This document shows positions 3,065 through 49,363 of a DNA stretch of 64,000 bases, one piece after another (position 1 is the stretch's first letter; each line of letters begins with the position of its first letter). The stretch is from Vicinamibacterales bacterium. Lineage in GTDB: Bacteria > Acidobacteriota > Vicinamibacteria > Vicinamibacterales > UBA8438. The stretch covers positions 1,763,949-1,827,948 of the forward strand of contig OZ253664.1 of NCBI GenBank assembly GCA_965263195.1, read 5' to 3'. The translations under genes were made by a program, and so were the position numbers. The notes under the pieces were generated by a model, which did no database searches, was not told where the DNA came from, and saw only the letters and a program-made list of their open reading frames with translations.

Positions 3065-3136
3065 CAGCGCGTGGTGAAACCCCGCGTCGCACCGAGACCG
3101 GTCGAATGCAGCGGGGCTTTTGCCACGGGCTGCTAG
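3061..3136. repeat. MITE/REP-like element, shortest form (two arms only, 76 bp imperfect palindrome)
   Basis: Sequence is CTAGCAGCGCGTGGTGAAACCCCGCGTCGCACCGAGACCGGTCGAATGCAGCGGGGCTTTTGCCACGGGCTGCTAG. The termini CTAGCAGC/GCTGCTAG are perfect inverted repeats. The same arms flank the longer copies at 12870, 14356 and 48052. Confidence 0.85.
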
Positions 3137-3161: not shown

Positions 3162-3192
3162 GAGGGCCGGGGATTCCCCCGGCCCTCTTTTT
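3162..3192 (+). terminator. rho-independent terminator of the TPR lipoprotein gene
   Basis: GAGGGCCGGGG-att-CCCCGGCCCTC forms an 11-bp GC-rich stem and is followed by TTTTT. Confidence 0.75.
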
Positions 3193-3784: not shown

Positions 3785-4216
3785 CTAGCCTCCCGCCGCT
3801 CCGCGCAGCTTGCGCTCGGTGATCAGTCCGATGTCCTCGATACCGGCCCGCTGCAGCCGGTCGAGCACGTTCATCACGTCGGCGTACCTGGCGCCCTGAT
3901 CGGCCTTGATCAGCACGATCCGCTCGAGCTTGCGGTCAAGCGCGCGCTGTACCGACGCCAGGAGCTGGCCGTCATTGGTGGGCTGGTTGTCCACGTAGAA
4001 CCGGCCGGAGGAATCCACGTGGAGCACCGTCTGCGAGTCGTTGTCCGCCTTTTCCACCGTGTTGGCCGCCTCCGGCAGGGCAACGAGCACACCCGCCTGC
4101 AGTAGCGGCGCAATCAACATGACGATGATCAGCAGCACCAGCATCACGTCAGCCAGCGGCGTTACGTTGATCTGCGAGTTCAGTCCGCCTGACTTGCCGC
4201 CTACATCCATCCCCAT
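3785..4216 (-). CDS. exbD: ExbD/TolR family biopolymer transport protein (second copy)
   Basis: 143 aa; QINVTPLADVMLVLLIIVMLIAPLL TM segment plus an ExbD-like C-terminal domain. Separated by 2 nt from the downstream exbD. Confidence 0.9.
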   Translation of the reverse strand: MGMDVGGKSGGLNSQINVTPLADVMLVLLIIVMLIAPLLQAGVLVALPEAANTVEKADNDSQTVLHVDSSGRFYVDNQPTNDGQLLASVQRALDRKLERIVLIKADQGARYADVMNVLDRLQRAGIEDIGLITERKLRGAAGG

Positions 4217-4255
4217 GTGGGCCTCCTTTACAGCGTCCCGTGCAACGCCCCGCCC

Positions 4256-4924
4256 CTACGACCTCTTGATGAAGTAGTCCACGAGCTCCGACGACGAGTT
4301 GTCCATCTCGACGTTGAAGTACTCGATGCGCCCGGTGAGGTAGTTGTAGAACCACACCGCCGGGATCGCCACGAACAGCCCGATGGCCGTTCCGACGAGC
4401 GCTTCCGAGATGCCGCCCGAGACGGCGCCCAGTCCGCCCGACCCGGTCTGCGCGATCCCCTGGAACGCGTTGATGACGCCGAGCGTCGTCGCCAGCAACC
4501 CCACGAACACGGCGGTCGACCCGATGGTGGCCAGAATGCCCAGCCCTTTCTTGAGATCGGCCGCCGTCAGGGCAGCGGCCCGCTGAATGGCCCGCCGGAC
4601 GCTGTCGACCACGTCTTCCTTGTCGAGCTGGACGCCCGTGTCCTGCTGGAACTGGTATTCCTGCAGACCCGCCAGGACGACCTTCGCCAGGTGGCTGTAC
4701 TTGTAGTTCTTGGACTGCGATACCGCGATCCCGTCCTTCAGCTTGTGGTCCTTCAGATGCTTCGCCACCTGCGGCGCGAACGTCTTGGACTGTTTCTGCG
4801 CCTGCATGAACGTGAAGATCCTCTCAAAGAACACGCCGACCGAGGCCATCGACATCACCGCCAGTATGCCCATCAAGGCCTTGACCGGCCAGCTCATCTG
4901 ATCCCACATTTCGAGTAAATCCAT
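4256..4924 (-). CDS. exbB: MotA/TolQ/ExbB proton-channel protein
   Basis: 222 aa with three predicted TM segments and the conserved C-terminal region (GLLATTLGVINAF..ISEALVGTAIGLFVAIPAVWFYNYL). Confidence 0.9.
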   Translation of the reverse strand: MDLLEMWDQMSWPVKALMGILAVMSMASVGVFFERIFTFMQAQKQSKTFAPQVAKHLKDHKLKDGIAVSQSKNYKYSHLAKVVLAGLQEYQFQQDTGVQLDKEDVVDSVRRAIQRAAALTAADLKKGLGILATIGSTAVFVGLLATTLGVINAFQGIAQTGSGGLGAVSGGISEALVGTAIGLFVAIPAVWFYNYLTGRIEYFNVEMDNSSSELVDYFIKRS

Positions 4925-4998
4925 CTGATCCTCCTGTACGATCGACTGGCGAACGCAGCACTAGAGCGGAACCAACGGTCTTCCCGGTCAGGTGCCAG

Positions 4999-5718
4999 TT
5001 ACTGCAGCGTGAAGTTCACGGTCACCGTCATGATGACCGGGACGGGCACGCCATTGAGCAGTGTGGGAGTGTACTCCCACTGCTTCACCGCGGTAACCGC
5101 CGCCTCGTCGAGCAGCGGCACCGACCGCAACACCTTGACGTCGGTGACCCGCCCGCTCGGACCGATCACGGCCTCAAGAATGACGATGCCCTGCACACGC
5201 GCCGACTGCGCAACCGGTGGATAGACCGGAGGCACGTCCCGGGTCTTGGTCGGCGGCGAGATGTTGCCGCCCACACGCACGGGCTCGGGTGGGGGCGGAG
5301 GCGGAGGGGGCGCTTCGATGATGCCCCCGACGATCCCTCCCGACACGACGCCGCCTACGATACCACCCTCGACACCGCCTACCGCGGACAGGTCGAACCC
5401 GGTCTCCTCCACGATCTCTATGGGAGCGACCACCGGCGCCGCATTCGGGTTGATGTCAATGATCGGGGGCGGTTCCGGCACCGCGGCAGTGGGCGGCGGG
5501 GGGGGGGGAGGTGGGGGTGGAGGCGGCGGTGGCGCGGCCACGAACGCCATCATCGACGCCGGCGTCGGCAGCACTTCGGTCGCCATCAAGGGAACGATCA
5601 CAATGGCACCGATCGCCGCGACATGGGCCACGATGGAGAGCGGCACGGTGTACCACTTGCGCGACCCCACTCTGATCGAAGGGTTTGCGATCTCACCAAA
5701 CATTTGACCGGCTGCCAC
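4999..5718 (-). CDS. tonB: TonB family energy transducer
   Basis: N-terminal TM anchor, two poly-proline linkers (a P15 run and a P9 run) and a TonB C-terminal domain (PPVYPPVAQSARVQGIVILEAVIGPSGRVTDVKVLRSVPLLDEAAVTAVKQWEYTP). The GTG start at 5718 is preceded by AAGGAGG with a 6-nt spacer. Confidence 0.9.
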   Translation of the reverse strand: MAAGQMFGEIANPSIRVGSRKWYTVPLSIVAHVAAIGAIVIVPLMATEVLPTPASMMAFVAAPPPPPPPPPPPPPPTAAVPEPPPIIDINPNAAPVVAPIEIVEETGFDLSAVGGVEGGIVGGVVSGGIVGGIIEAPPPPPPPPEPVRVGGNISPPTKTRDVPPVYPPVAQSARVQGIVILEAVIGPSGRVTDVKVLRSVPLLDEAAVTAVKQWEYTPTLLNGVPVPVIMTVTVNFTLQ

Positions 5719-11338: not shown

Positions 11339-13125
<1,787 letters not shown>

Positions 13126-13176
13126 TACTACCGCCATTTCCCGGCCTACCCTTCCTCATCCACCGAGGGCCATCCA

Positions 13177-14355: not shown

Positions 14356-14649
14356 CTAGCAGTCTGTGGTGAAACCCCGCGTCGCACAAAGAACGGCGAG
14401 GCGCTCGTCCGACAAGGCGCGAGGAGGGAGCATATTCGAAGACATGTGACTTAGGAACAACGCAGTCAGGAAGGGGGACGACGAGCACTCAAGCAGTCGT
14501 CCCCCAAGCCGCACACAGTGCGCCTCGGCGGACACGGCGCGGGGCGAAGGGGTCCCCGCTAGCGGCCGCCGGGGGTTTAGGGCGCAGCCCCAAGTGGTAA
14601 TGCCGCAGCGCCGGTCGAATGCAGCGGGGCTTTTGCCACAGGCTGCTAG
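14356..14649. repeat. MITE/REP-like element, longest form (294 bp)
   Basis: Bounded by CTAGCAGTCTGTGGTGAAACCCCGCGTCGCAC and CCGGTCGAATGCAGCGGGGCTTTTGCCACAGGCTGCTAG. It contains the core, an extra perfect 10-bp hairpin (GGGGGACGAC..GTCGTCCCCC) and the GC module. It has the same orientation as the copy at 12870. Confidence 0.88.
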
Positions 14650-16859
14650 GGGTCGAACGGCTGCACGCCGTCCCAGACGCGGACGCGCAGCATCGCGTCG
14701 CCCGGTTGGATCTGATCCACGACCTCCATGCCGTCGACCACCCGGCCGAATACGGTGTACCGGCCGTCGAGCCGGGGTTGCGGCAACCGCGTGATGAAGA
14801 ACTGGCTGCCCCCGGTGTCCTGCCAGTCGAGCGCCATGCCGACCGTGCCGCGGAGAAACGGCAGCTGGTTTATTTCGTCCCGGATCGTGTAGCCGGGACC
14901 GCCCTCGCTGTCGCTGCGCGGATCTCCGCCCTGCACCACATAGTTACTCACGGCGCGATGGAACGTCAGGCCGTCGTAGTAGCCGCGACGCGCCAGCCGC
15001 ATGAAGTTGGCGGCAGTGAGCGGCGCTTCGAGCACGGCCAGCTCGATCTGAATCGTGCCCCGGGCAGTATCTATGTACACGTGCGGCGATACGCTCGGAA
15101 CAACGAGGTCGCGCGCACCGTAGTCCGTACCGCCGGTCGGCGCAGGTCTGATCCGGGCGCCGTGATCCATGCCGGGCACGAGGTCCTCCAGGCGTTGGAC
15201 AGCGCGGATCCGCACCGCCCAGTCGCGATCAGCGAGCGCAGTCGTCAGGATGTCGCGACCGCCTGCGCCGCCGATGGCGCCTGCGGCGTCGATGATTGCC
15301 GCACGCGCCAGGTACTCCGGATCTTCGGCGGCGGCGGCGTAAGCCTTGGCGAGCGCCTCGATCGCGTCCGGCGGCTGCACCACGCCGAGCAACGTGGCCG
15401 CGGTCTTCTTCACGACGACGTCGTCGTCCTCGAGGTGCTCGATCAGTACCGCCCCGGCTTCCGGCACCCCGAGACCGACCAGCGCCGAGAGGACCGCCGG
15501 CACAACCCTACGATCGGCGTCGTCCAGCATCCCGATCAGATACGGCCCCGCCACCTCCGGCCCCGCGTACACCAGTCCGTCGGCCAGCGCGACGCGCACG
15601 CGCCAGTCCGAATCCGGTTCGATTCCCGACAACACCAGCAGGAACATTTCCGCGTCCGCCTCAGCGAGTCCGCGCAGAGCGGCGGCGCGCATCAGCGGCC
15701 ACGGGTCCGACAGCAGCTCGACGAACACTTGTACGACGACCGGATCGGCGCGGCCAGCCAACGCCACGACCGTCTCGTAGCGCAGCATCGGATCGATGTC
15801 CCGCCGCACGACGAACTGCCGCAGCGTCTCGGTCGCCGCCGGCTCCCGGAATTGCGCCAGCGCCCGCAGCGCCGCCAGCAGGACGCGCCGGTCACGCCGC
15901 TCCGGATCCAGCAGCTCGATCAGCGGCGCGACGGCGGCCGGATCGCCCAGCGCGCCCAGTCCCCGCGCCGCCAGCGACACACCCACGCTGCCCTGCACAC
16001 CGACGAGCGTGCTGAGGGCCGGGAATGCCCGCGCGTCGTCAATCCGCGAGAGGACGTCGGCGACCGGCCACCACCAGATCACCGGCTGGCCGTTCGGCTG
16101 CAGCAGCGCGGCCGCCAGCGGCTCGAACGCGCGGAGCTCAGCCAGGGCATACAGTCCGAGCCGGAACGCCTCCACTTCCGGTGTCTGGGGATAGGAGAGA
16201 TCTTCCGGGTCAATCCCGTACGTCTCGATGATGTAGCGGCTTACCAGCTCGCGAATTGCATCCCGGGCGCCGTCCACGCCGAGCCGGCCCAGCGCCTCCG
16301 CCGCCCGCCCCTGCACGAGCGGCGAGGAATCCCGCAGCGCGAGCAGCAGCGGCTCGGCCGCCGCTTCGTCGCCGATCAGGCCGAGGGCGAACGCCGCCAT
16401 TTGGCGCACCTCCGGCTCCGGATCGTGCAGGGCCACCGCCAGCGGCGTGATCCCCTCGGAACGTCCAACCCGGCCGACCGCCAGCGCAGCGCGGCGGCGC
16501 ACGCGCGGCGCGTCATCGGCCAGCAGGTCGACGAGATCAGGTACCGGGCGCAGCGCGGCCGGCGGCGTCGCCGCGGGAGGCTCCGCGGCAGAGGATGTCT
16601 CGGCCGCCGCGGGGATCTCCTCGCGCGGCGGCGCGTCCGGATCGCGGAGCACACGCTGGTCTTCCAGGCGCAGGATCCAGCCCAGCTTCTCCTGGAGGGG
16701 GGGCGGGCCGACAGGAACCGCCGGGGGGGCCGCGCCGGCGCAGCCCGCGACTGCGGCAAGCAGGCCTACCCGGACCGCAAGCGACGTCGGTCGGAGCCGT
16801 GTCTGCGTCACGTCAAGCGGAGGATGGACGGCGGCAACCACCCGCCGTCGGCGCGCCAT
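14646..16859 (-). CDS. HEAT-repeat protein fused to a C-terminal cyclophilin-type peptidyl-prolyl isomerase; probable lipoprotein
   Basis: The C-terminus is cyclophilin-like (YYDGLTFHRAVSNYVVQGGDP..GTVGMALDWQDTGGSQFFIT..LDGRYTVFGRVVDGMEVVD). The preceding ~500 aa are HEAT/PBS-lyase-like repeats (repeated ..VR..AA.ALG..GD..A...L...L.D). The N-terminus reads LAVRVGLLAAVAGC, with lipobox VAGC. The start is uncertain: ATG 16859, GTG 16811 or the ORF-track 16889. The stop lies within the CTAG end of the repeat. Confidence 0.8.
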   Translation of the reverse strand: MARRRRVVAAVHPPLDVTQTRLRPTSLAVRVGLLAAVAGCAGAAPPAVPVGPPPLQEKLGWILRLEDQRVLRDPDAPPREEIPAAAETSSAAEPPAATPPAALRPVPDLVDLLADDAPRVRRRAALAVGRVGRSEGITPLAVALHDPEPEVRQMAAFALGLIGDEAAAEPLLLALRDSSPLVQGRAAEALGRLGVDGARDAIRELVSRYIIETYGIDPEDLSYPQTPEVEAFRLGLYALAELRAFEPLAAALLQPNGQPVIWWWPVADVLSRIDDARAFPALSTLVGVQGSVGVSLAARGLGALGDPAAVAPLIELLDPERRDRRVLLAALRALAQFREPAATETLRQFVVRRDIDPMLRYETVVALAGRADPVVVQVFVELLSDPWPLMRAAALRGLAEADAEMFLLVLSGIEPDSDWRVRVALADGLVYAGPEVAGPYLIGMLDDADRRVVPAVLSALVGLGVPEAGAVLIEHLEDDDVVVKKTAATLLGVVQPPDAIEALAKAYAAAAEDPEYLARAAIIDAAGAIGGAGGRDILTTALADRDWAVRIRAVQRLEDLVPGMDHGARIRPAPTGGTDYGARDLVVPSVSPHVYIDTARGTIQIELAVLEAPLTAANFMRLARRGYYDGLTFHRAVSNYVVQGGDPRSDSEGGPGYTIRDEINQLPFLRGTVGMALDWQDTGGSQFFITRLPQPRLDGRYTVFGRVVDGMEVVDQIQPGDAMLRVRVWDGVQPFDP

Positions 16860-18532: not shown

Positions 18533-18535
<3 letters not shown>

Positions 18536-18585
18536 TCCGAGGAGCCCGTGGCGAGACCCCGCGCGGCACCGCGACCCCACCGTCC
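18533..18585. repeat. probable solo arm of the MITE/REP-like family
   Basis: TTAGTCCGAGGAGCCCGTGGCGAGACCCCGCGCGGCACCGCGACC aligns by eye to the left arm CTAGCAG..CGTGGTGAAACCCCGCGTCGCACCGAGACC. It starts at the accD TAG stop and fills the accD-folC spacer. Confidence 0.35.
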
Positions 18586-29841: not shown

Positions 29842-30007
29842 GATAGCGGGTGGACCTGTTCCAGCGAAACCCGGCCTATGCGATTATGGCACTGCATCGT
29901 GCGCGACCAAACCCCGAACCTGTGGAATCAATAACTTGCAGAGATGAGACGCTCGAAATGCCGCCCAAATCGGCAAAATGCCCGGCCATCTTGTTAAACA
30001 TGGGCTA
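28580..30007 (-). mobile_element. decayed IS1634-like (IS4-superfamily) insertion sequence with intact terminal inverted repeats
   Basis: Left end is CTAGCCCAAGTTTAACAA (28580-28597). The right end, CTTGTTAAACATGGGCTAG (29989-30007), reverse-complements to CTAGCCCATGTTTAACAAG, matching 17 of 18 positions. The interior holds transposase fragments in at least 3 frames. Confidence 0.8.
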
Positions 30008-30016
30008 GCAGTCCGT

Positions 30017-31171
30017 CTAGCCGTCCGCGGCGATGCGCCGCAGCAATCCGGCGACCAACGCGGCGCGCCACGGCATCTGGCCCACGTCGACATGCTCGTG
30101 GAGCGCGTGCGCACCGTCGCCGACCGCCCCCAGGCCGTCGAGCGTGGGCACGCCGAGCGCCGCGGTGAAGTTGCCGTCCGACCCGCCGCCGGCCGCACCC
30201 TCCGCCAGGTCGCGGCCGAGCGCGCGCGCCACCTCGCGGGCCAGGCCGTACAGGCGCGCCACGCCCGCGGTGCGCTCCAGCGGCGGCCGGCTGAAGCCGC
30301 CGCCGAGGACAAGGGCGGTCCGCCGGTCGCGCGACTGCAACTGCCGCATGGCCACCTCGACGCGGCGCGCGTCCTCTGCGGATTGGACGCGCACGTCCAC
30401 CACCGCGCGCGCATGCTCGGCAACCACGTTCGGCCGGCTGCCGCCCGCGACCAGGCCGACGTTCACGGTGACGCCGCGCGCCGGATCGGCGAGCGCGTCA
30501 AGCGCGCCAATCTGCGCCGCCAACTCGGAGATCGCGCTCGCGCCCTTCTCCGGCTCGAGGCCGGCGTGCGACGCAACGCCGCGGACCAGCAATTCGAATT
30601 CGCCGGAGCCCTTGCGGCAGGTCTTCAGGGCGCCCCCGGGGAGCGCCGGCTCCAGGACGCAGACCGCGTCGGAGCGGCGCGCTTCCGCCTCAACAAGCGC
30701 CCGCGACGCACCGCTCCCGCGCTCCTCATCGGCGGTCAGCAGCAGCACCACGCGTCGGCCCAGGTCCACCTCCGGCCGCGTAACCGCCGCGGCGGCCAGC
30801 ATGCCGATGGCAATCCCGGCCTTCATGTCGAAAACGCCCGGGCCGTACAAGCGGTCGCCGTCCCGTCGAATCGGCATCCGCTCTATCTGCCCGACCGGCC
30901 AGACGGTGTCGATGTGACCGAGCAGCAGTATCTGGCCGGCGCCGCTGCCGAACGTGGCGCGCAGGTGGTCGCCGGTCGTACCCGACGGCACGGCGTCAAC
31001 TGCGGCGTCCAACGCCTCCATGCGCTTGGCGACTTCGCGGCCGCAACGGTCCACCGCCGCCTTGTCCGGTGTCGGTGACTCCAGATTGACCAGCGCCGTC
31101 GTCGTCTCGACCAGCCAGTCCCGTCGCGACGTGCAGAACGCGAGCAGCCCGCTCATCTCATCATTTGACAT
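30017..31171 (-). CDS. M20-family metallopeptidase (carboxypeptidase G2 / acetylornithine deacetylase-like)
   Basis: LLLGHIDTVWP, GPGVFDMKAG and LLLTADEERGS are M20 metal-site motifs. The ATG at 31171 (MSNDEMSGLLAF..) is preferred over the track start at 31279. Confidence 0.85.
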   Translation of the reverse strand: MSNDEMSGLLAFCTSRRDWLVETTTALVNLESPTPDKAAVDRCGREVAKRMEALDAAVDAVPSGTTGDHLRATFGSGAGQILLLGHIDTVWPVGQIERMPIRRDGDRLYGPGVFDMKAGIAIGMLAAAAVTRPEVDLGRRVVLLLTADEERGSGASRALVEAEARRSDAVCVLEPALPGGALKTCRKGSGEFELLVRGVASHAGLEPEKGASAISELAAQIGALDALADPARGVTVNVGLVAGGSRPNVVAEHARAVVDVRVQSAEDARRVEVAMRQLQSRDRRTALVLGGGFSRPPLERTAGVARLYGLAREVARALGRDLAEGAAGGGSDGNFTAALGVPTLDGLGAVGDGAHALHEHVDVGQMPWRAALVAGLLRRIAADG

Positions 31172-31226
31172 GGACTCTTCCCTGCACCGGCCGGCGGGGT
31201 TGCGCCGCGTTGCGGCCGCCCGCATA

Positions 31227-31724
31227 ATGGAATTCGTGCCTCCGAAGCGCGCGGTCGCCGCCCTGTCGCTGTTCTGCATCTGCCTGACGCCGGCAGCGCC
31301 GGCGTGGTCGGCTCAGCAGGATGCAGTGGCTGCCGATCAGGCCGCGGCCGAGCAGTCGCCGACCGCGGAGACGCTCGGCTTCCCGATCTACCCGAGTGCC
31401 CGGTTCCTCCGATCGTACGACGCCGGGCAGGGTCAGCGTTACTACCTGTTCGGTACCGACTCCACATTTGTGGACATGGTCAACTACTATCGCCTGTTGT
31501 TGGAAGAGCGTGGCGACCGTGTCTTCGATGCGCCGGCCACGCACATCTTCGAAGTGGGGCGTTTTCGTGAGGAGAGCATGGCGTTCCCGCCCGGCGTGAC
31601 CATCAAGGACTATACCTGGAACGGCGCGGAAGGCTACCTCCATGCGGGGGGCGAAGCCGGGCCGGAGCGGTACGGCACCATCATCCAGATCGTTCCGGCG
31701 CCGCCAACCCCGCCAGACCGCTAG
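31227..31724 (+). CDS. hypothetical secreted protein
   Basis: The ATG at 31227 gives MEFVPPKRAVAALSLFCICLTPAAPAWSAQQ, a signal peptide with an AWS|A cleavage site. The protein is 165 aa with no family I recognise. The stop TAG is part of a CTAG repeat terminus. Confidence 0.6.
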   Translation: MEFVPPKRAVAALSLFCICLTPAAPAWSAQQDAVAADQAAAEQSPTAETLGFPIYPSARFLRSYDAGQGQRYYLFGTDSTFVDMVNYYRLLLEERGDRVFDAPATHIFEVGRFREESMAFPPGVTIKDYTWNGAEGYLHAGGEAGPERYGTIIQIVPAPPTPPDR

Positions 31725-31812
31725 GAGTGGCAAAAGCCCCGCTGCGCCTGATGGCTGCAGGAGTGTGAGGTGCGGATGCCGTCCGCGGCTCGCACTGATC
31801 AGACATATTGGA
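31721..31812. repeat. truncated/degenerate copy of the MITE/REP-like family
   Basis: CTAGGAGTGGCAAAAGCCCCGCTGCGCC matches the arm CTAGCAGCCTGTGGCAAAAGCCCCGCTGCATTC. The remainder has diverged, with ..TCAGACATATTGG possibly a core remnant. Confidence 0.45.
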
Positions 31813-31816
31813 ACGG

Positions 31817-34567
31817 TCAGGACAGAACGCCCTTGTGCAACGCGTAGCGGACGGCGTCGTTCCGTCTGGAGACGCCGGTCCTCCGGTATATCTTCTTCAG
31901 GTGATAACGTACGCCTTCGTCGCTGATCCCAAGGTGCTCCGCGATTACCTTGTTCCGGTGGCCGCGGCGCACCTCCGCCAGTATTTCCAGCTCCCGCGAC
32001 GTGAATTCGGGCGCAACCGTGGCGGACCGTTTCCCCAGACTCGCCAGTATGGATTCGACGGTCTCTTGGAGGTCTCCGTGCGGGTTTCCGGTTAGATATT
32101 GTTGCAGCACGGTCAGGCTCACATCCCGGTGGCGTTCCAGCGGCCTGATGTAGTCAACGTCACGCGCACGGCTGAGGAATTCGACCAATCGCTTGAGCGC
32201 CAGCTCCGGTTGTCTGGCGTGGTGGGCAACGACCATCGACAACGCCAGGCTCCGCATGACGGTGCGCATCAGACCGCGCGCCGAGGCCGTGCGGTATATG
32301 GCGTTCGCGAGCGCGCCCGCGGCGTCGAAATCACCCTTCCCGACCAGCAACCGCACGCGCGCGCATGACAGCGCCTCCATCGTCCGCCAGGACCGGGTGT
32401 CCAGGTCCAACAGCTCCGCGTCGGCATGGGGCAGACCGTAGTTCCGCCACGCGTACCCCGCCTCGTCAGACTGTCCGGTCTCCGCCAGATAGGACGCCAA
32501 CAGCGCGGCCAGGTAGTGCGAAACGTGCCCGATGCCCGCTGCCCGCGCCTCGTCGATCGTGTGCGTCAGGAGCTTCACGACCGCTTGGCCGTCATATTGT
32601 GCGAACGTCAATTCCGCGTGAACTGCGACTGCCGCGGCATAGATGTCGATCCATCCGCTCCGCAGCTCGGTCATGCCTCGCAGCGTACGCTGCTGAAGGG
32701 CTTTCTTGCGGTTCCGCTCCAGATCGAGCTCGATGGTCACGACGTCGGTGCTGGCCGAAAGGTAGGGATCGGACGGAAAGTATTTGCGGGCACCCTGCCG
32801 AGCACGCCTGTACCAATCGGCGGCATCCCGCGGCCTTCCCTGCGCCATCGCGACCATCCCCAGGGAGATACTTATGTAGATGTCGCCATACGGCGCATCC
32901 TCGCCGAAGTATGCCTGCGCCTGCATCCCGTGCCGGCGACTCTCCTCGAAGCGGGCGCGTCCGTAGCTGGCACCGCAGCGCAGGGCGTGCCGGACGGCGG
33001 GGTTGAACCAGGAGGACTCGCCATCGCCAGGGACGGTCTCGTCGTCCGGCAGTTTCGCGTCGAACTCAGTTTGCTGCAGCCGGCACGTGCCGCCCAACAG
33101 TGCGACTTGGGTGAAGACTCCGTCGAAGGACAACGCCTCAACATCGCCGCCGTCCCGGTCCCGCGTGAAGCCCTCTGTTCTGCGCGCGACGTCTTCGTAC
33201 AGGGCGGCGGCCTTATCGAACTTGAAGGCCAGCTTGAGGAAAACGCAGTGGAGAAGCGCCAACCGCGGATAGGCCTCTATGCTCTCCGGCGTCAGGAACC
33301 GAGCGGCGGAAACGACCTGCGCCAACCCCCCACGCACCCAAAGCCCGACCACGCCGACACTCTCGATCAGCTCCCCCACAAGCCGAACGTCACCTGCCGC
33401 GTTCGCGTGCCGCCACGCCGGCGTGAGCTGGCTGCGGCGCGTCAGCGCCCGCGCGATCCGGGTGTGCAGGGTCCGTTTGCGAGCCGGATCCTCCACCGCG
33501 AAGCGCGCGACGCAATATTCCCGAACGAGCGGGTGCAAGAGCTGCACGGTGTCGTTGTCGTCGCTGGGCAACAAGAGACCGTCCAGCGATGACAACGCAG
33601 CTATCCGCAGGCGGGCGTCACTCGATCCCAATACCTCGTCCACGAGATCCGCCTCGATCCAATCGAAGACCGCCAGATCAAGCAGGAACGTGCGATCCGC
33701 CGCCGACAGATCGCGCAGCAGGCGCACGCCGACAAAGTTCGACGTCAGGCTTGCGGCGTCCGCCCCCGGCTGCCCAGCCTCCCGGACCTGCATGTTGCGA
33801 TAGACCACCAGTGCAACCGGCCAGCCGGCTGTCCGCTTCTCAACCGCCGCCAACTTGCGCCGCGACAGGTCGCCGTGGAAGAACTGTGCGATCTCATGCT
33901 TGGAAAAACGAAACGCACGCGGCCCCACGATGATGGCGGAGCCGTCGAGAATATGTGCGGCCAGATCCAGCCCTGGATTGGATCGGAATGCCGCAGCAAA
34001 GTGCAGGTTCGGCGGCGCGCGCTTCAACAGCAGATCGATCAACCCCACCGCGTGGCTCGGCAGCCGCTCCACTTCATCGAGTACCAGCAGGCACGGCGCA
34101 GCATGCCGCTCGATGGCGCGGGCCAGCATCCCGATCTGACACGCAATCGGCGAAGACAACCACGCACCCTGAGCAGCCATGACCGCGAGATCCAGCCCGG
34201 CATGTTCGAGTGCGTAGGCGATGTAGCTCCCGAACAAGTCCGGCGTATCGTCCTCGTCCAGCGTGAGCCATCCGACGACGAGCCCCTGATCCTTCTTCCT
34301 GCGGCTGACATCCGCCAGCACGGTCGTTTTGCCGAACCCGGCTGGTGCCTGCAGCGCGGTGAGCCGTCGCTGCAGCGCCGAATCGATTTGTTCCAGTAGC
34401 AGCGGACGGCGCAGGTATTCCGGCGGCGGCGGCGGCGCGACAACCTTCGCCTTCAACAACCAGGGCGGGAGAACTCCGGGAACGGAGGACTTACCAACGC
34501 TGGCGGCCCCAGTGGCATCTGACAGCATTCCGGTGGCGATCTGCCGGGCTACGGAATATGACGGCAT
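31817..34567 (-). CDS. LuxR-family large ATP-binding (LAL/MalT-like STAND) transcriptional regulator, paralog 1
   Basis: 916 aa with Walker A LQAPAGFGKTTVL and Walker B CLLVLDEVERL. A long helical/TPR-like sensor region is followed by a C-terminal LuxR HTH (SRELEILAEVRRGHRNKVIAEHLGISDEGVRYHLKKIYRRTGVSRRNDAV). Confidence 0.88.
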   Translation of the reverse strand: MPSYSVARQIATGMLSDATGAASVGKSSVPGVLPPWLLKAKVVAPPPPPEYLRRPLLLEQIDSALQRRLTALQAPAGFGKTTVLADVSRRKKDQGLVVGWLTLDEDDTPDLFGSYIAYALEHAGLDLAVMAAQGAWLSSPIACQIGMLARAIERHAAPCLLVLDEVERLPSHAVGLIDLLLKRAPPNLHFAAAFRSNPGLDLAAHILDGSAIIVGPRAFRFSKHEIAQFFHGDLSRRKLAAVEKRTAGWPVALVVYRNMQVREAGQPGADAASLTSNFVGVRLLRDLSAADRTFLLDLAVFDWIEADLVDEVLGSSDARLRIAALSSLDGLLLPSDDNDTVQLLHPLVREYCVARFAVEDPARKRTLHTRIARALTRRSQLTPAWRHANAAGDVRLVGELIESVGVVGLWVRGGLAQVVSAARFLTPESIEAYPRLALLHCVFLKLAFKFDKAAALYEDVARRTEGFTRDRDGGDVEALSFDGVFTQVALLGGTCRLQQTEFDAKLPDDETVPGDGESSWFNPAVRHALRCGASYGRARFEESRRHGMQAQAYFGEDAPYGDIYISISLGMVAMAQGRPRDAADWYRRARQGARKYFPSDPYLSASTDVVTIELDLERNRKKALQQRTLRGMTELRSGWIDIYAAAVAVHAELTFAQYDGQAVVKLLTHTIDEARAAGIGHVSHYLAALLASYLAETGQSDEAGYAWRNYGLPHADAELLDLDTRSWRTMEALSCARVRLLVGKGDFDAAGALANAIYRTASARGLMRTVMRSLALSMVVAHHARQPELALKRLVEFLSRARDVDYIRPLERHRDVSLTVLQQYLTGNPHGDLQETVESILASLGKRSATVAPEFTSRELEILAEVRRGHRNKVIAEHLGISDEGVRYHLKKIYRRTGVSRRNDAVRYALHKGVLS

Positions 34568-34788
34568 CTACCTATTCGGACGCTTCCACCCCATCCTCGG
34601 GGTTCAACCGTTCTGCAGATCGCGCAATCGAATCGACTGCCGCCGCCGCCCGGTCCTCCGTCACGCGCCGTGAGGCCCGCGCCGGAATGCGACCGGCGGG
34701 CTGCTGGATGGCGGGTTGGTGTCGCGGTGGTGGAAGAGCCGCTCATTGGTGGGTCGGACATGGAGCGGCAGTGCGAGAGCGTGGAGGG

Positions 34789-34843
34789 CTAGCAGTCCGT
34801 CGCGACACTCCGCATCGCACCGAGAGCGGCCAGGTGAGGCGCC
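34789..34843. repeat. solo left arm of the MITE/REP-like family
   Basis: CTAGCAGTCCGTCGCGACACTCCGCATCGCACCGAGAGCGGCCAGGTGAGGCGCC aligns to the left arm plus the adjacent GGCGAGGCGC segment of the copies at 14356 and 48052. No matching right arm was seen. Confidence 0.5.
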
Positions 34844-34978: not shown

Positions 34979-37762
34979 TCAGGACAGCATCCCCTTGGCC
35001 TGCGCGTAACGTACGGCGTCGAGCCGTCTGGAGACGCCTGTCTTGCGGTAGATCTTCTTCAGGTGGTAGCGAACGCCTTCGTCGGTGATGCCCAGGCGTT
35101 CGGCGATTTCCTTGTTGCGGCGACCGTGGCGGACCTCCATCAGCACCTCCAGCTCGCGCGACGAGAAACCCTGTGCCTTGGCGGCGGCCGGTTCGGCGAG
35201 GTGTGCGAGCGCAGCCTCGGCAGTCTCTCGCAGCTCCGCGTCGAGATCCCCGGCGAGCAGTTGTCGCAGGACGGTCGCGCTTACGTCGCCGTGGCGCACG
35301 AGCGGCCGGATGTAGTCCGCTTCGCGCAACCGGCGGAGGAATTCGACGAGCCATTTGACGGCCCGATCCGGCTGTGCGGCATGGTGGGCGACAACCATTG
35401 ACAGCGCGAGGCTCCGCATGGCCGTGCGTACCAGACCATGCGCCGACGCCGTGCGATTCACATGGCTGGCGAGCTCACCGGCCGCGTCGAGGTCTCCCTG
35501 CGCGATCAACAACCGGACGCGCGCACAACACAGCGCCTCCATCGTCCGCCAGGAATGGCCGTCGAGATCGAGCAGCTCCGCTGCACTGCAGGGCAGCGCG
35601 GCGTTCCGCCACACGTTTCCAGCCTCCTCGGAGCGGCCGATCTCAACCAGGTAGGAAGCCAGTAGCGCCGACAAATAGTGCAACAGGTTGTCATTGCCCA
35701 TCGCCCGCGCGCCGTCAATCCTGCGCGTCAGCAGTGTGACGACCGCGTGGCTGTCGCTCTGTTCGAACGTCAATTCGGCGCGCACGGCCACGGTCGCGGC
35801 ATAGAGGTCGATCCATCCGCGCATCTCGGTCATGCCTTGCAGCGTCCGCTGTTGAATGGCTTTGCCGCGGTTCCGCTCGAGATCGAGTTCGATCGTCATG
35901 ACATCGATGTTTACCGAGAGGTAGGGGTCGGAGGGAAAATACTTCCTGGCGCCCTGCCGTGCGCGGCGGTACCACTCGGTGGCCTCTCGCACACGTCCTT
36001 GCGCCATGGCGGCCATACCGAGGCAAATGCTCACGAATATGCTGCCGTACCGCGCGTCTTCCCCGAAACGGGCCCGTGCCTGCATGCCATGCTGGCGGGC
36101 CTCCTCGAAACGGCCGCGCTCGTAGCAGGCAACGCAGCACACCATGTGCCGGGCACCCAGCCTGAACGACGCAAATTCGTTGTCGCCGGGGGTGGTCACG
36201 TTGGCGGGGAAGGCCGTATCGAACTCGCCGTGCTCCGATCGGCACGGCCCCCCCGCCAATACCAACTCCGTGAAGACCTGGTCGACGGACAGTGCAGCTG
36301 CATCGCCGCCATCCCGGTCGCGCGTGAACCCGTCGGTCTTCCGCGCTACCACCTCGTACAGCGTGGCCGCCTCGTCGAACTTCGACAACAGGTTGAGAAA
36401 GACGCAGCGCAGGAGCGCGAGCCGCGGATAACGTTCCGTAATCTCCGGAGTCAGGAACTGCCCGGCCGAAACTACCCGCACCAGCCCCTCCCGCAACCAC
36501 AACCTGGCTACGCCGACCTCTTCGATGAGTCGGCCCACCAGCCCGCTGTCACCTGCCTCGCTGGCGTGACGGCAGGCCGGCGTCAATTGACCCCGGCGCG
36601 CCAGCGCCAGCGCAATCCGCGTATGCAGCGACCGCTTGCGGACCGGGTATTCGACCGCGAACCGCTCGACGCAATACTCCCGAACGAGCGGGTGCAGGCG
36701 CCGCACGGTGCTGTCATGATCCATAGGCAACAGCAGGCCGTCGAGAGACGACAGCGTGGCGATCCGCAGGCGCGCATCGCTCGATCCGAGCACCTCGTCC
36801 ACCAGATCCGCCTCGATCCAGTCGAAGACCGCCAGATCGAGCAGGAATGTGCGGTCCTCGGCCGAGAGATCGCGCAGCAACCGCACGCCGATGAAGTTCG
36901 AGGTGAGTCTCGCGGTGTCCGCTCCGGGTTGTCCCACCTCGCCGGACCGCATGTTGCGGTAGACCATCAACGCAACCGGCCAGCCAGCCGTACGCTCCGC
37001 GACCACCGCCAGCTTGCGTCGCGAAAGATCTCCGTCGAAGAACCGGGCGATCTCGGGTTTCGAGAAACGGAACTCCTGTGCACTGACGATGACCGCCGAG
37101 CCCTCGAGAACGTGCGGCGCCAGGTCCAGTCCCGGATTGGACCGGAACGCCAGGGCAAAATGGAGATTGGGCGGCGCGCGCTTCACCAGCAGGTCTATCA
37201 GCGCCACGGTGCTGGCCGGCAGACGATCGACCTCGTCGAGTACCAGCAGGCACGCCGCCGCATGCAACTCGATCGCGCGCGCCAGCATCCCGATCTGATG
37301 CGCAATCGGCGACGAAGACCAGCCGTCATGGCTGGCCAGGCTCGCGAGGTCCAGCCCGGCGTGCTCGAACGCATACGCGATGTAGCTCCCGAATACGTTC
37401 GGCACATCGTCCTCGTCCAACGACAACCATCCGACGACGAGCCCCTGCTCTTTCTTCCTGCGGCTCACGTCGGCCAGCACGGTCGTCTTGCCGAATCCGG
37501 CCGGCGCCTGCAGCGCGGTGACCCGCCGGTCGAGCACCGCGTCGATTTGTTGCAGCAGCGACGAACGGTAGACATATCCCGGCGTCGCTGCCGGCACCAT
37601 CACCTTCGCCTTCAGCAACCAGGGCGGGACAACGCTGGAAACAGGGCCTTCACGAAGGGCGCCGGCGGCAGCAGTGTCTGACGGTTCTCCGGAAGCAGCT
37701 CGTCGAGCTGTACGGGAAGACGAGGTACGTTTGAGCCGACCCGTCGTCTCATCCACATCCAA
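34979..37762 (-). CDS. LuxR-family large ATP-binding (LAL/MalT-like STAND) transcriptional regulator, paralog 2
   Basis: 927 aa, collinear with paralog 1 over its full length; I estimate roughly 70% amino-acid identity by eye. It has the same Walker A/B and LuxR HTH (SRELEVLMEVRHGRRNKEIAERLGITDEGVRYHLKKIYRKTGVSRRLDAV). The start (TTG at 37762) is uncertain. Confidence 0.88.
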   Translation of the reverse strand: MDVDETTGRLKRTSSSRTARRAASGEPSDTAAAGALREGPVSSVVPPWLLKAKVMVPAATPGYVYRSSLLQQIDAVLDRRVTALQAPAGFGKTTVLADVSRRKKEQGLVVGWLSLDEDDVPNVFGSYIAYAFEHAGLDLASLASHDGWSSSPIAHQIGMLARAIELHAAACLLVLDEVDRLPASTVALIDLLVKRAPPNLHFALAFRSNPGLDLAPHVLEGSAVIVSAQEFRFSKPEIARFFDGDLSRRKLAVVAERTAGWPVALMVYRNMRSGEVGQPGADTARLTSNFIGVRLLRDLSAEDRTFLLDLAVFDWIEADLVDEVLGSSDARLRIATLSSLDGLLLPMDHDSTVRRLHPLVREYCVERFAVEYPVRKRSLHTRIALALARRGQLTPACRHASEAGDSGLVGRLIEEVGVARLWLREGLVRVVSAGQFLTPEITERYPRLALLRCVFLNLLSKFDEAATLYEVVARKTDGFTRDRDGGDAAALSVDQVFTELVLAGGPCRSEHGEFDTAFPANVTTPGDNEFASFRLGARHMVCCVACYERGRFEEARQHGMQARARFGEDARYGSIFVSICLGMAAMAQGRVREATEWYRRARQGARKYFPSDPYLSVNIDVMTIELDLERNRGKAIQQRTLQGMTEMRGWIDLYAATVAVRAELTFEQSDSHAVVTLLTRRIDGARAMGNDNLLHYLSALLASYLVEIGRSEEAGNVWRNAALPCSAAELLDLDGHSWRTMEALCCARVRLLIAQGDLDAAGELASHVNRTASAHGLVRTAMRSLALSMVVAHHAAQPDRAVKWLVEFLRRLREADYIRPLVRHGDVSATVLRQLLAGDLDAELRETAEAALAHLAEPAAAKAQGFSSRELEVLMEVRHGRRNKEIAERLGITDEGVRYHLKKIYRKTGVSRRLDAVRYAQAKGMLS

Positions 37763-46233: not shown

Positions 46234-48051
46234 TCAGCTGCTTCCCGCCGGATCGTCTCCGATCCTGAGCACCGCGAGAAACGCCTCCTGCGGGATTTCC
46301 ACCCGGCCCACCCGCTTCATGCGGCGCTTCCCTGCCTTTTGCTTCTCCAGCAACTTGCGCTTGCGGCTTATGTCGCCCCCGTAGCACTTGGCCAGAACGT
46401 TCTTGCGCAGCGGCCGGACCGTTTCGCGCGCGATGACGCGCGTCCCGATGGCCGCCTGGATGGCGACCTCGAACATCTGGCGCGGAATCAACGCCCGCAT
46501 CCGGGCGGCCAGCGCGCGGCCGCGTACATACGCCGTGTCGCGGTGCACGATGACCGACAGGGCGTCCACCGGCTCGCCGTTGACGAGCAGGTCCAGACGG
46601 ACCAACGGCGAATCCCAGTACTTCGACACATGATAGTCGAGCGATGCGTAGCCGCGCGACACCGTCTTCAGGCGGTCGTAGAAGTCGAGCACCACCTCGT
46701 TGAACGGCAGCTCATAGGTGATCACCACCCGCTTCGCCCCGTGGTATTCCAGGTTCTTCTGGACGCCCCGCTTCTCCTGGCACAGCTTCAATATTGCGCC
46801 GACGCAGTCGGCCGGCGCCAGAATCACGGCGTCTATGACCGGTTCCTCGACGCGCTCGATGCTGCCCGGCGGAGGGAGCTTGGCCGGGCTGTCGATCTCG
46901 GTCACGGCGCCGTCGGTGGTCGTCACCCGGTACAGGACACCCGGCGCCGTAGTGACCAGGTCCATGTCGAACTCACGTTCCAGGCGCTCCTGCACAATCT
47001 CCATGTGCAACAGGCCGAGAAAGCCGCACCGGAAGCCGAACCCGAGCGCGGCGGACGTCTCCGGCTCGAACACTAACGACGCGTCGTTGAGCTGCAGCTT
47101 GTCGAGCGCGTCGCGCAGCTCGGGGTACTCGTGGCCCTCGACCGGATACAGCCCCGCGAACACCATCGGCTTCAATTCGCGGAATCCGGGAAACGGGACG
47201 GACGTTGGCCGCGCCGCCTCCGTCAACGTATCGCCGATACGGGCATCCTCCACCTGCTTGATGCCGGCAATCACGAAGCCGACCTCGCCTACACCGAGGG
47301 CATCCGTGTCGACCGGCTTCGGCGAGAACACGCCGACCTGCTCGATCTCGTATTCCTGCCCCTCGGCCATCAGCCGCACCCGCATACCCGGCCGGATGGC
47401 GCCGTCGACGACCCGGATCAGCACCACGACGCCGCGATACGCGTCGTACCACGAATCGAAGATCAGCGCCTTGAGCGGCGCGTCGGGCGAACCCTGCGGC
47501 GGCGGCACGCGCGCCACCACCGCCTCGAGAACCTCGCGCACGCCGGTCCCGTCCTTGGCGCTCGCCCGGATCGACATCGCCGGATCGAGGCCCACCAACT
47601 CCTCCACCTCTCGCGCAGTCTCCTCCGGCTGCGCGCCGGGGAGATCGATCTTGTTGATGACCGGGATGATCTCCAGGTCATGGTCCGCGGCCAGGTAGGC
47701 GTTCGCCACGGTCTGCGCCTCCACGCCCTGGGAGGCATCCACCAGCAGCAGGGCGCCCTCGCACGCCGCGAGCGAGCGGGCGACCTCGTACGAAAAATCC
47801 ACGTGCCCGGGTGTGTCGATCAGGTTCAGGATGTACGACTCGCCGTTCTCCGCCGTGTAGGACAGACGTACCGCGTGGGCCTTGATCGTGATGCCGCGCT
47901 CGCGCTCCAGGTCCATGGTGTCGAGCACCTGCGCCTCCATTTCGCGCGGGCGCAGCGCTCCGGTCAGCTCGAGGAAGCGGTCGGCGAGCGTCGATTTCCC
48001 GTGATCGATATGGGCGATGACGGAGAAGTTGCGGATGCGGTGGTGGTCCAT
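46234..48051 (-). CDS. lepA: elongation factor 4 (LepA)
   Basis: 605 aa; [28 protein letters not shown], the LepA C-terminal domain. The ATG directly abuts the CTAG end of the repeat at 48052. Confidence 0.96.
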
Positions 48052-48216
48052 CTAGCAGCCTGTGGCAAAAGCCCCACTGCATTCGACCGGCGGTGCATCC
48101 CGCCTGAGCTGCGTTGCTCGTCGGTCACATATCGAGAATATGCTCCCTCCTCGCGCCTTATCAGCCGGGCGCCTCGCCGGTCTCGGTGCGACGTGGGGTC
48201 TTGCCACAGGCTGTAA
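48052..48216. repeat. MITE/REP-like element, 165-bp form (arms + AT-rich core), inverted relative to the copies at 12870 and 14356
   Basis: Sequence is CTAGCAGCCTGTGGCAAAAGCCCCACTGCATTCGACCGG ... GGTCACATATCGAGAATATGCTCCCTCCTCGCGCCTT ... GGTGCGACGTGGGGTCTTGCCACAGGCTG. It fills the whole lepA-gltA spacer. Confidence 0.85.
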
Positions 48217-48220
48217 ACGG

Positions 48221-49363
48221 TCAGCGGCCCGCCAGCGGAACGAAAGTCTGGGGATACGGCGGACCGTCGTACTCGGCGCGCGGCCGGATGAGGCGGTTGT
48301 TGGCGTACTGCTCCAGGACGTGCGCGGTCCAGCCCGAGACGCGGCTGACGGCGAACACCGGCGTGAACAGCTCGACCGGAATACCGAGCAGCGAGTAGGT
48401 GGACGCCGAATAGAAATCGACGTTCGCGTTGATCTCCCGCTTTTCCTTCATCGCCGCCTCGATGCGCCGCGACATCTCGTACCACCGCGTGCGGCCGGCG
48501 CGCTCCCCGAGTTCGCGCGACATCCGCCGCAGGTGCGTGGCGCGCGGATCCTCCGTGCGGTATACGCGGTGCCCGAACCCCGGCACTTTCACCTTGCGGT
48601 CCAGCATGTCGCGGATGACGCGGTCCACCCGCTGGTCGTCGGCGTCCTCACCGATGTCGACCAGCATCTTCATCACCGCCGCGTTTGCACCGCCGTGGAG
48701 TGGTCCCTTGAGCGCGCCGATGCCGGCAACCACGGCCGAGTGGATGTCGCTCAGCGTGGCAGCCGTCACCCGCGCGGCGAACGTCGATGCGTTCAGTTCA
48801 TGATCGGCGTGCAGGATCAAGGCGACGTCGAAGGCGCGCGCGGCGACGGCGCTGGGCCTTTCGCCGGTCAGCATCAGCAGGAAGTTCGCGGCGTGGCCAA
48901 GGGTCGGATCGGGATCGACCGGGCGCCGGCCGGCGGCGACACGGCCCCAGGCCGCCACGACGCTGCCGAGCTGGGCCGTCAAGCGCACGGCCGTGCGCAA
49001 GCGGGCCTGCGGCGAGCTGTCGCCGGCGTCCGGGTCGAAGTGCGCCAGTGCCGACGTGAGCGTACGCAGCGCGTCCATGGCGTCGCCCGGGGGCAGCAGC
49101 CGGACGAGCCGCTGCAGCGGCTCGTCGAGCGCCCTGGCGCTGGCAAGCTGCGACTGCAGGTCCCCCAGTTCGGCGCGCGTCGGCAGCCGCTTGTGCCACA
49201 GCAGGTGGCACACCTCCTCGAACGTGGCGTGCTCGGCCAGATCGTGGATATCGTGACCGGCATAGGCGAGCACACCGCGAGCGCCATCGAGATAGCAGAT
49301 TGCGGACGAGGTTGCGACGACCCCTTCGAGGCCCGCCTTGGCCGGTGCAGCTGGCGCAGTCAT
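48221..49363 (-). CDS. gltA: citrate synthase (or 2-methylcitrate synthase) family protein
   Basis: 380 aa; LILHADHELNAST, GALKGPLHGGAN, PGFGHRVY. The ATG overlaps the TGA of the upstream GT2 gene by 1 nt. Confidence 0.9.
   Translation of the reverse strand: MTAPAAPAKAGLEGVVATSSAICYLDGARGVLAYAGHDIHDLAEHATFEEVCHLLWHKRLPTRAELGDLQSQLASARALDEPLQRLVRLLPPGDAMDALRTLTSALAHFDPDAGDSSPQARLRTAVRLTAQLGSVVAAWGRVAAGRRPVDPDPTLGHAANFLLMLTGERPSAVAARAFDVALILHADHELNASTFAARVTAATLSDIHSAVVAGIGALKGPLHGGANAAVMKMLVDIGEDADDQRVDRVIRDMLDRKVKVPGFGHRVYRTEDPRATHLRRMSRELGERAGRTRWYEMSRRIEAAMKEKREINANVDFYSASTYSLLGIPVELFTPVFAVSRVSGWTAHVLEQYANNRLIRPRAEYDGPPYPQTFVPLAGR

Follow-up and report, generated by a model that had tools for sequence, protein, structure and literature searches.

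A probable IS5-type miniature transposable element with a duplicated CTAG target at gene boundaries in Vicinamibacterales

The repeat and its delimitation

We analyzed a 64,000-nt stretch of the genome of a Vicinamibacterales bacterium (assembly GCA_965263195.1, contig OZ253664.1, positions 1,763,949 to 1,827,948; called the window throughout), in which a 158-nt repeat recurs beside the stop and start codons of genes, among them lepA. This repeat is very probably a non-coding MITE (a miniature transposable element with inverted repeats) that uses an IS5-type transposase and duplicates a CTAG target on insertion, its coincidence with codons being a by-product of target choice.

Matches to a 23-nt arm motif were collected from species-representative genomes, giving at least 106 matching stretches, from which 100 paired elements were delimited. 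By modal length the canonical form is 158 nt, with CAG...CTG tips and inverted arms of about 40 nt, and the sequence is about 90% conserved along its full length, across orders and phyla. The consensus RNA folds from end to end (-101.6 kcal/mol, z = -7.7). A search of the window with an nhmmer profile built from 69 copies identified four clear copies, three arm remnants and one 8-nt stub. The features by which MITEs are recognized are present: terminal inverted repeats; a small, non-coding, multi-copy sequence; a target-site duplication (TSD) relative to an empty site; and a partner insertion sequence (IS) with matching tips. The sole match in an Rfam scan of the window was a tRNA, and no family fits the element. 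The GC content is 67.7% in the window, about 68% in the host genome and 64–70% in the element-bearing genomes. We likely have here an abundant and previously undescribed MITE family of uncultured Vicinamibacterales, with a likely IS5-type parent.

CTAG is the duplicated target of insertion

The CTAG that flanks the element is a 4-bp TSD and not the terminus of the element itself. Searching the 106 pattern-derived loci with the window by blastn gave no usable orthologous empty site; empty sites were found through homologues of LepA, Ddl and a tetratricopeptide repeat (TPR) protein. These relatives, which share 88–99% protein identity, revealed presence/absence polymorphism at four window sites, and the empty orthologous sites show insertion at these exact points.

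Copy C (14360–14645, + strand; 286 nt, enlarged by an additional internal stretch; nhmmer E = 1.6e-26 and 5.6e-12) lies between ddl and a HEAT-cyclophilin gene (14646–16841, minus strand). The window there reads ...gggacgcCTAG[286 nt]CTAGgggtcgaacgg, with one CTAG at 14356–14359 and another at 14646–14649, the latter holding the HEAT-cyclophilin stop (14646–14648), which reads CTA on the + strand. In the closest relative (L123, Ddl 96% identical) the same point has a single CTAG, reading TGAacatccgctccgggacgcCTAGggctcgaacgg / gggacgcCTAGggctcgaacgg, and this CTAG is already the HEAT-cyclophilin stop codon. Two more distant relatives (L115, L116) have TTAC at this point, a TAA stop at the same codon. 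Copy A (3065–3132, + strand) is internally deleted to an A-arm and a B-arm (68 nt; model positions 1–41 and 128–166; nhmmer E = 6e-10) and follows the TPR lipoprotein gene (2075–3064), whose TAG stop (3062–3064) lies inside the + strand CTAG at 3061–3064; the second target copy is at 3133–3136. The TPR gene has a native CTAG stop and no element in L119 and L120, ends in TGA in L122, and is followed by a 34-nt remnant after its stop in L121 (~2518–2551). The stop position is unchanged in the relatives, and because the target is duplicated the gene retains both its own stop and its frame, and its neighbor retains its own start codon.

The initial annotation had proposed that a CTAG terminal to the element provides the TAG of these two genes (3062–3064 and 14646–14648) and of a third (31722–31724), a gene for a 165-aa signal-peptide protein (31227–31724, called from its coding score and signal peptide) with its stop inside the CTAG at 31721–31724. 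The TAG does lie in an arm-flanking CTAG, but the stop existed before the element arrived, as L123 demonstrates for the HEAT-cyclophilin gene and L119 and L120 for the TPR gene.

The notion that CTAG is the element's own terminal sequence, donating TAG stops to genes, has some attraction in that 127 of the 243 detected ends read CTAG|CAG, that the palindromic CTAG resembles an extension of the inverted repeat, and that two copies are flanked by CTGG...CCAG in inverted form. We nevertheless judge it highly improbable. For copies A and C it is refuted by the empty sites in L123, L119 and L120, which hold one CTAG that is already a stop. Across 102 copies, the flanking 4-mers are CTAG/CTAG in 38, among them copy C with its left coordinate corrected by hand, and TTAA/TTAA in one, differ by one base in 37, and form identical non-palindromic direct pairs in seven (CTAT twice; ATAG, CTAA, CTGA, CTTG and CTGG once each), against about 0.1 such pairs expected for CTAT/ATAG by our own estimate. 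The two copies with inverted-only flanks match the approximately 0.9 cases that we estimate, from end frequencies, for independent CTAG-to-CTGG mutations. Direct flanks are also found around a full-length IS (CTAG) and around the IS of plasmid record pLB1 (CTAA), both described below.

Among targets CTAG dominates; CTAA, CTAT, ATAG, CTTG, CTGA and TTAA are less frequent, and TTAG was also seen. This corresponds to the YTAR-type 4-bp duplication of the IS5 group, with CTAT, CTTG and CTGA as off-pattern sites. The flanking CTAG has often mutated by transition to CTGG or CCAG (35 of 243 ends), far above other variants.

IS630 elements also target CTAG and duplicate TA, and an IS630/Tc1-mariner-type MITE that duplicates just the TA within CTAG would fit exactly the copy beside tgt (GG-TA-[TCAG...CTGA]-TA-TACTACC against the empty GGTATACTACC), as well as the copy in L012, which reads TTA|...|TAA. 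We give this alternative next to no credence. Four-base direct repeats without TA occur (CTGA/CTGA, CTTG/CTTG and CTGG/CTGG), the pairs CTAT/CTAT, ATAG/ATAG and CTAA/CTAA would need non-complementary tips, and the IS that shares its tips with the repeat encodes a protein of the DUF772 plus DDE_Tnp_1 type; the NCBIfam models that score best on it are IS1182 and IS5 (both below their cut-offs), and the matches listed include none to the IS630 family. The TA-only duplication was rejected on the direct 4-mer repeats. What remains of the earlier proposal of insertion at CTAG or TA is thus the CTAG-type target, with a 4-bp, YTAR-like duplication in place of the TA dinucleotide.

Placement at codons follows CTAG availability

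Gene calls for the 0.91 Mb made up by the window and the 106 loci came from a codon log-odds model, for which long open reading frames (ORFs) with high GC at third codon positions served as training set. At 31 of 204 ends, in 30 of 102 elements (29%), the flanking 4-mer ends in the stop codon of a called gene, where a model of uniform insertion into non-genic DNA gives 0.5% (p = 2.5e-43). Unoccupied non-genic CTAG sites are themselves stops in 58 of 160 cases (36%), and the two proportions do not differ significantly (29% vs 36%, Fisher p = 0.28). Starts follow the same comparison: a gene begins 0–6 nt beyond the flank at approximately 10 of 102 elements, and the same holds for 18 of the 160 empty non-genic CTAG sites (11%). 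Over these loci, stops are enriched far above the uniform model, and neither stops nor starts exceed CTAG availability.

The 217 CTAG sites found outside elements in the 0.91 Mb comprise 57 genic sites, 58 stops and 102 intergenic sites, in agreement with the view that in a high-GC genome CTAG is largely confined to stop codons and gene boundaries. The window itself has 25 CTAG sites, of which three are genic, nine are stops (three with an element or remnant, one with the stub) and six are unoccupied and intergenic, the rest being associated with elements. Because CTAG is rare in genes and concentrated at TAG stops and tight junctions, copies come to lie at stops or abutting starts. At most 4 of 105 copies are possibly intragenic, vs 26% genic sites among the empty CTAG sites.

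Target specificity together with the loss of genic insertions accounts for the pattern, and further selection is unneeded. Insertions into genes would have been removed by purifying selection, and insertions at gene boundaries would be nearly neutral. No function has to be invoked for the meeting of element ends and codons; a target that contains a stop codon and a duplication that regenerates it make gene ends safe landing sites in GC-rich genomes. Our literature search found no statement that target duplications of prokaryotic MITEs coincide with stop codons.

A candidate parent IS and its transposase

A putative partner of the repeat was found at locus L057 (Vicinamibacterales, OZ253576.1), where a 1465-bp IS (3997–5461) has CTAG on both sides. 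Its tips read CAGCCCGTGG.../...CCACGGGCTG, or over a longer stretch CAGCCCGTGGTGAAAG.../...CTTCTGCCACGGGCTG. The encoded protein of 442 aa passes two Pfam models, DUF772 at 64.5 bits and DDE_Tnp_1 at 28.9 bits; its NCBIfam scores are 165.6 for IS1182 (cut-off 270) and 87.3 for IS5_4 (cut-off 140). The closest annotated relatives of this transposase are 52–54% identical, with 52% identity to the pLB1 'IS5 family transposase'. The shared tips, the CTAG flanks and the DDE transposase lead us to regard the repeat as a MITE of an IS5/IS1182-type IS. Judging from these sequence features, it would be mobilized in trans by a DDE transposase of that type. When solo ends were considered as possible IS ends, 9 of 10 neighboring ORFs proved to be ordinary genes, and the transposase came from L057 alone.

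The same locus holds a MITE (3835–3992), a shared CTAG and then the IS (3997–5461), arranged head to tail over 3835–5465. Apparently one of the two used the other's duplicated CTAG as its own target, the IS that of the MITE or vice versa.

The lepA and tgt/ddl sites

The gltA/lepA junction holds a full-length copy of the MITE (48056–48213, minus strand; 158 nt; nhmmer E = 2.3e-47), which runs from A-arm to B-arm on the lepA sense strand. The lepA gene (EF4; 46234–48051, minus strand) encodes 605 aa with Pfam GTP_EFTU and LepA_C domains, and its 605-aa orthologues are 93–99% identical. As had been noticed initially, its ATG (48051–48049) directly abuts what was read as the element end: the CTAG flank at 48052–48055, one copy of the TSD, stands immediately upstream. 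The other flank (48214–48217) has diverged to TAAA on the + strand, or TTTA on the lepA strand, and the gltA stop (TCA, 48221–48223) lies 3 nt beyond it.

The element is absent at the orthologous junction in L108–L114. In L108–L111 the sequence is ...cttgATG, with the gltA TGA overlapping the lepA ATG (TGATG), and in L112–L114 the two genes are 12 nt apart. The insertion was into the 4 bp immediately preceding the ATG: where relatives have CTTG, the window has TTTA[158]CTAG, diverged flanks that make this the least tidy of the four sites. Relatives with LepA 93–95% identical are found on chromosomes of Vicinamibacterales metagenome-assembled genomes (MAGs; Acidobacteriota), and a metagenome contig also encodes the window's LepA protein. 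A gammaproteobacterial MAG (L074) repeats the lepA layout exactly, gaagcCTAG[158]CTAGATG, and altogether 8 of 105 copies lie at co-directional stop-to-start junctions.

The lack of a Shine-Dalgarno (SD) motif before lepA had been noted beside the element. No SD motif precedes lepA in the element-free L108–L114 either, and GGAG, GAGG or AGGA occurs at -20 to -4 in 34–39% of called genes against a background of 8–15%. Since the element-free relatives are without an SD motif and a minority of genes in these genomes carry such motifs, its absence at lepA is ancestral and unremarkable and is not a product of the element. The lepA start call is secure because an in-frame TAG stands immediately upstream, leaving this ATG as the sole candidate, and LepA has 605 aa in all relatives. 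For tgt, the same ATG and a length of 394 aa are kept in all relatives. Both genes had been described as essential, a description that fails in that neither lepA nor tgt is known to be essential in E. coli.

Copy B (12873–13122, + strand; 250 nt, likewise enlarged by an internal stretch; nhmmer E = 5e-17 and 2e-9) occupies the divergent spacer between tgt and ddl and is flanked by GTAT (12869–12872) and ATAT (13123–13126). Four nucleotides (12865–12868) separate the tgt ATG (12864–12862) from the flanking GTAT, which bears out the reported closeness of this start to the element end. In element-free relatives the divergent spacer is 58 nt long (L123, 1443–1500), and GTAT was the point of insertion. 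L116 also carries the element here, whereas L115 and L123 have the empty site (catTGGGGTATACTAGCG).

The tgt/ddl insertion (window 12865–13176) split the AT-rich palindrome GGTATACT. If this palindrome is the shared -10 region, the promoters of both tgt and ddl were rearranged; no consensus promoter turned up with or without the insertion. In the relative L116, identity to the window is 99% for LepA but only 88% for Ddl, and copy B is there without copy C. This pattern suggests recombination among close strains together with different ages of the copies.

Predicted folding of the element and possible selection

Mismatches between the arms read as G.U wobbles on one strand and as C.A on the other, so that the two strands fold unequally (-101.6 kcal/mol for the former vs -89.8 for the latter). 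At the lepA copy the RNA hairpin including the flanks reaches -113 kcal/mol, and in a model of gltA-lepA read-through the flanks prolong the stem, with the lepA AUG paired at its foot, opposite a region 3 nt after the gltA stop. If transcribed, the element would form a hairpin of about -100 kcal/mol with both CTAGs in its base, and could modulate translation or mRNA decay. An effect on mRNA like that of repetitive extragenic palindromes (REPs) or Correia elements is conceivable but unsupported, as is a hairpin-bridged coupling at lepA. Scans of the lepA copy for a rho-independent terminator found no U-tract and no terminator-like site, and sigma-70 promoter scans of the lepA copy, the tgt/ddl copy and the empty L123 site found no promoter-like site, which leaves an outward promoter in the element unsupported. 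At copy A the terminator scan found terminator-like sites only outside the element, and the copy sits between the TPR stop and the gene's own intrinsic terminator (3162–3187).

These foldings bear on the question of whether placement is itself selected, with the hairpin acting as a 3'-end stabilizer or intercistronic regulator that preserves translational coupling at lepA. Such selection could be read from the fold asymmetry between strands, the orientation of copies (31:17 among co-directional neighbors, and 38:21 for A-arms facing incoming genes), the approximately 90% conservation of 158 nt across orders and phyla, the pairing of the lepA AUG at the stem foot in the transcript model, and the same stop[158]start layout in the gammaproteobacterium L074. 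We find it unlikely, as stops and starts are hit with no excess over CTAG availability, no U-tract terminator was found and the TPR gene keeps its own terminator, and internal deletions wear the copies down (to 68 nt, 34 nt, the 8-nt stub). The orientation bias is weak and does not reach significance at 0.05 in the cleanest test (31:17, p = 0.06), and recent spread explains the high conservation equally well.

It is also conceivable, though doubtful in our estimation, that the element is a partly domesticated RNA module, the folded insert returning the gltA stop to a position beside the lepA AUG so that coupling is kept. The better hairpin strand would then have been kept through G.U wobbles; the duplicated palindromic CTAGs would pair and bring the upstream stop and the downstream start side by side; and a ribosome terminating on gltA would melt the stem foot and free the sequestered lepA AUG. 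Were this so, coupling would outlast a 162-nt insertion, and a 'topologically neutral' transposon would be able to colonize operon junctions.

We favor an IS5-type MITE whose codon coincidence follows from its target, and several points weigh against it. The transposase is below the curated NCBIfam cut-offs for both IS1182 and IS5, and the parent IS shares just the terminal 12–14 nt with the MITE. The tgt copy, with its GTAT/ATAT flanks, also fits a 2-bp TA duplication. The differing flanks of the lepA copy (TTTA and CTAG) call for three post-insertion substitutions or an unknown ancestral 4-mer. The orientation ratios hint at some selection on the RNA. Finally, the gene calls come from our own simple codon-score caller, and the 106 loci were chosen for the presence of the element and represent about 20 genomes, not one whole genome. 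The polymorphic lepA, tgt/ddl, HEAT-cyclophilin and TPR sites offer natural pairs with and without the element in which hairpin effects on expression can be compared.

Relation to known elements and distribution

MITEPsy1, a 100-nt element of P. syringae pv. phaseolicola related to the IS5-family ISPsy2, duplicates CTAG or YTAA (PMC3189936). The present element resembles the MITEPsy1/ISPsy2 pair in being short and non-coding, in having inverted repeats that match an IS5-family IS, and in its 4-nt CTAG duplication. The two have no sequence similarity: MITEPsy1 has 100 nt and 18-nt repeats starting GGAAGG, whereas the present element has 158 nt and arms of about 40 nt starting CAGCCCGTGG. The present host, moreover, is an uncultured member of the Acidobacteriota, and copy density is much higher, with four copies, three remnants and a stub per 64 kb. 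The IS on pLB1 (AB244976.1), with ends reading CTAA|CAGGCCG...GCGCTG|CTAA, agrees in its CAG...CTG tips and likewise duplicates a 4-bp YTAR target; it is, however, an autonomous element of Proteobacteria with a differing inner repeat, and its record describes no MITE derivative.

Correia elements (CREE/NEMIS) of Neisseria are abundant intergenic MITEs of approximately 100–160 nt that are co-transcribed with their neighbors and form long hairpins (PMC2229807). The present element is like them in that its target contains TA and such sites lie at gene boundaries in the genome concerned. Correia elements carry IHF sites and promoter elements and undergo RNase III processing, whereas promoter scans of the present element were negative. 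The duplication made by Correia elements is TA.

The REP/BIME and ERIC sequences of enterobacteria are transcribed palindromes of 3'-untranslated and intercistronic regions that can stabilize upstream mRNA, and they offer a functional analogy for the hairpin. REPs are 20–40 nt long and are moved by RAYT (IS200/IS605-like) enzymes with no known target duplication; the present element differs from them in its 4-bp duplication and its DDE-type IS tips. The MIRUs of M. tuberculosis are reportedly operon repeats of a GC-rich genome whose ends overlap flanking stop and start codons, a placement that the present element would share. MIRUs are tandem direct repeats of 40–100 bp with small ORFs and not, as here, inverted-repeat transposons with target duplications.

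The same MITE was found in Ca. Rariloculus (L005, L019, L028, L089), in the Gammaproteobacteria contig OY762933.1 (L074, L090, L098, L099), and in Bryobacterales (L012 and others). Copies on chromosome-scale contigs of Gammaproteobacteria and Bryobacterales are 87–92% identical to the consensus, no less similar than those within Vicinamibacterales. Contigs of Gemmatimonadota (Ca. Palauibacter; L041, L097) match the element, with no full-length copy among them scored for identity. Similarity across phyla at this level implies recent transfer. The MITE was found neither in PLSDB plasmids by blastn nor in IMG/VR viral contigs by exact pattern.

Variant copies and remnants

Downstream of the TPR gene the copy measures 68 nt in the window and 34 nt in a strain with 97% identity, and a strain with 90% identity lacks it, a series that suggests stepwise internal deletion keeping the tips and both CTAGs. 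Copies B and C have in common the extra GC-rich internal segment (12985–13080 and 14470–14602), which is 84% identical between them over 88 nt and carries a CTAG of its own and small palindromes. Elements of approximately 297 nt in L036 and L059 point either to a nested insertion or to a subfamily of greater length.

In the accD/folC spacer, between the accD stop (18533–18535) and the folC ATG at 18586, there is a marginal A-arm-like remnant (18538–18574, + strand; nhmmer E = 0.052, model positions 3–37). A solo arm had been thought to begin at the accD TAG itself; the match starts at about 18538–18540, 3–5 nt after the TAG, and the proposed overlap is not borne out. All the other codon coincidences first reported are present at the coordinates given for them. 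A stub consisting of CTAG-CAGTCCGT-CTAG (30005–30020), with the first 8 nt of the A-arm, has as its second CTAG the stop of a gene on the minus strand (30017–31279), and is probably the footprint of a copy lost from another stop codon.

The secreted-protein gene is followed by CTAG and a degenerate B-arm remnant (31721–31745, minus strand; a weak match, nhmmer E = 0.018). A solo A-arm with a CTAG flank (34786–34836, + strand; nhmmer E = 2.8e-6) lies between tandem paralogues, with no stop codon involved. These two paralogues of about 900 aa (31817–34567 and 34979–37762, minus strand) share 72–77% DNA identity in a 3162-nt register, and each is followed by an element remnant, at 31721–31745 and 34786–34836, respectively.

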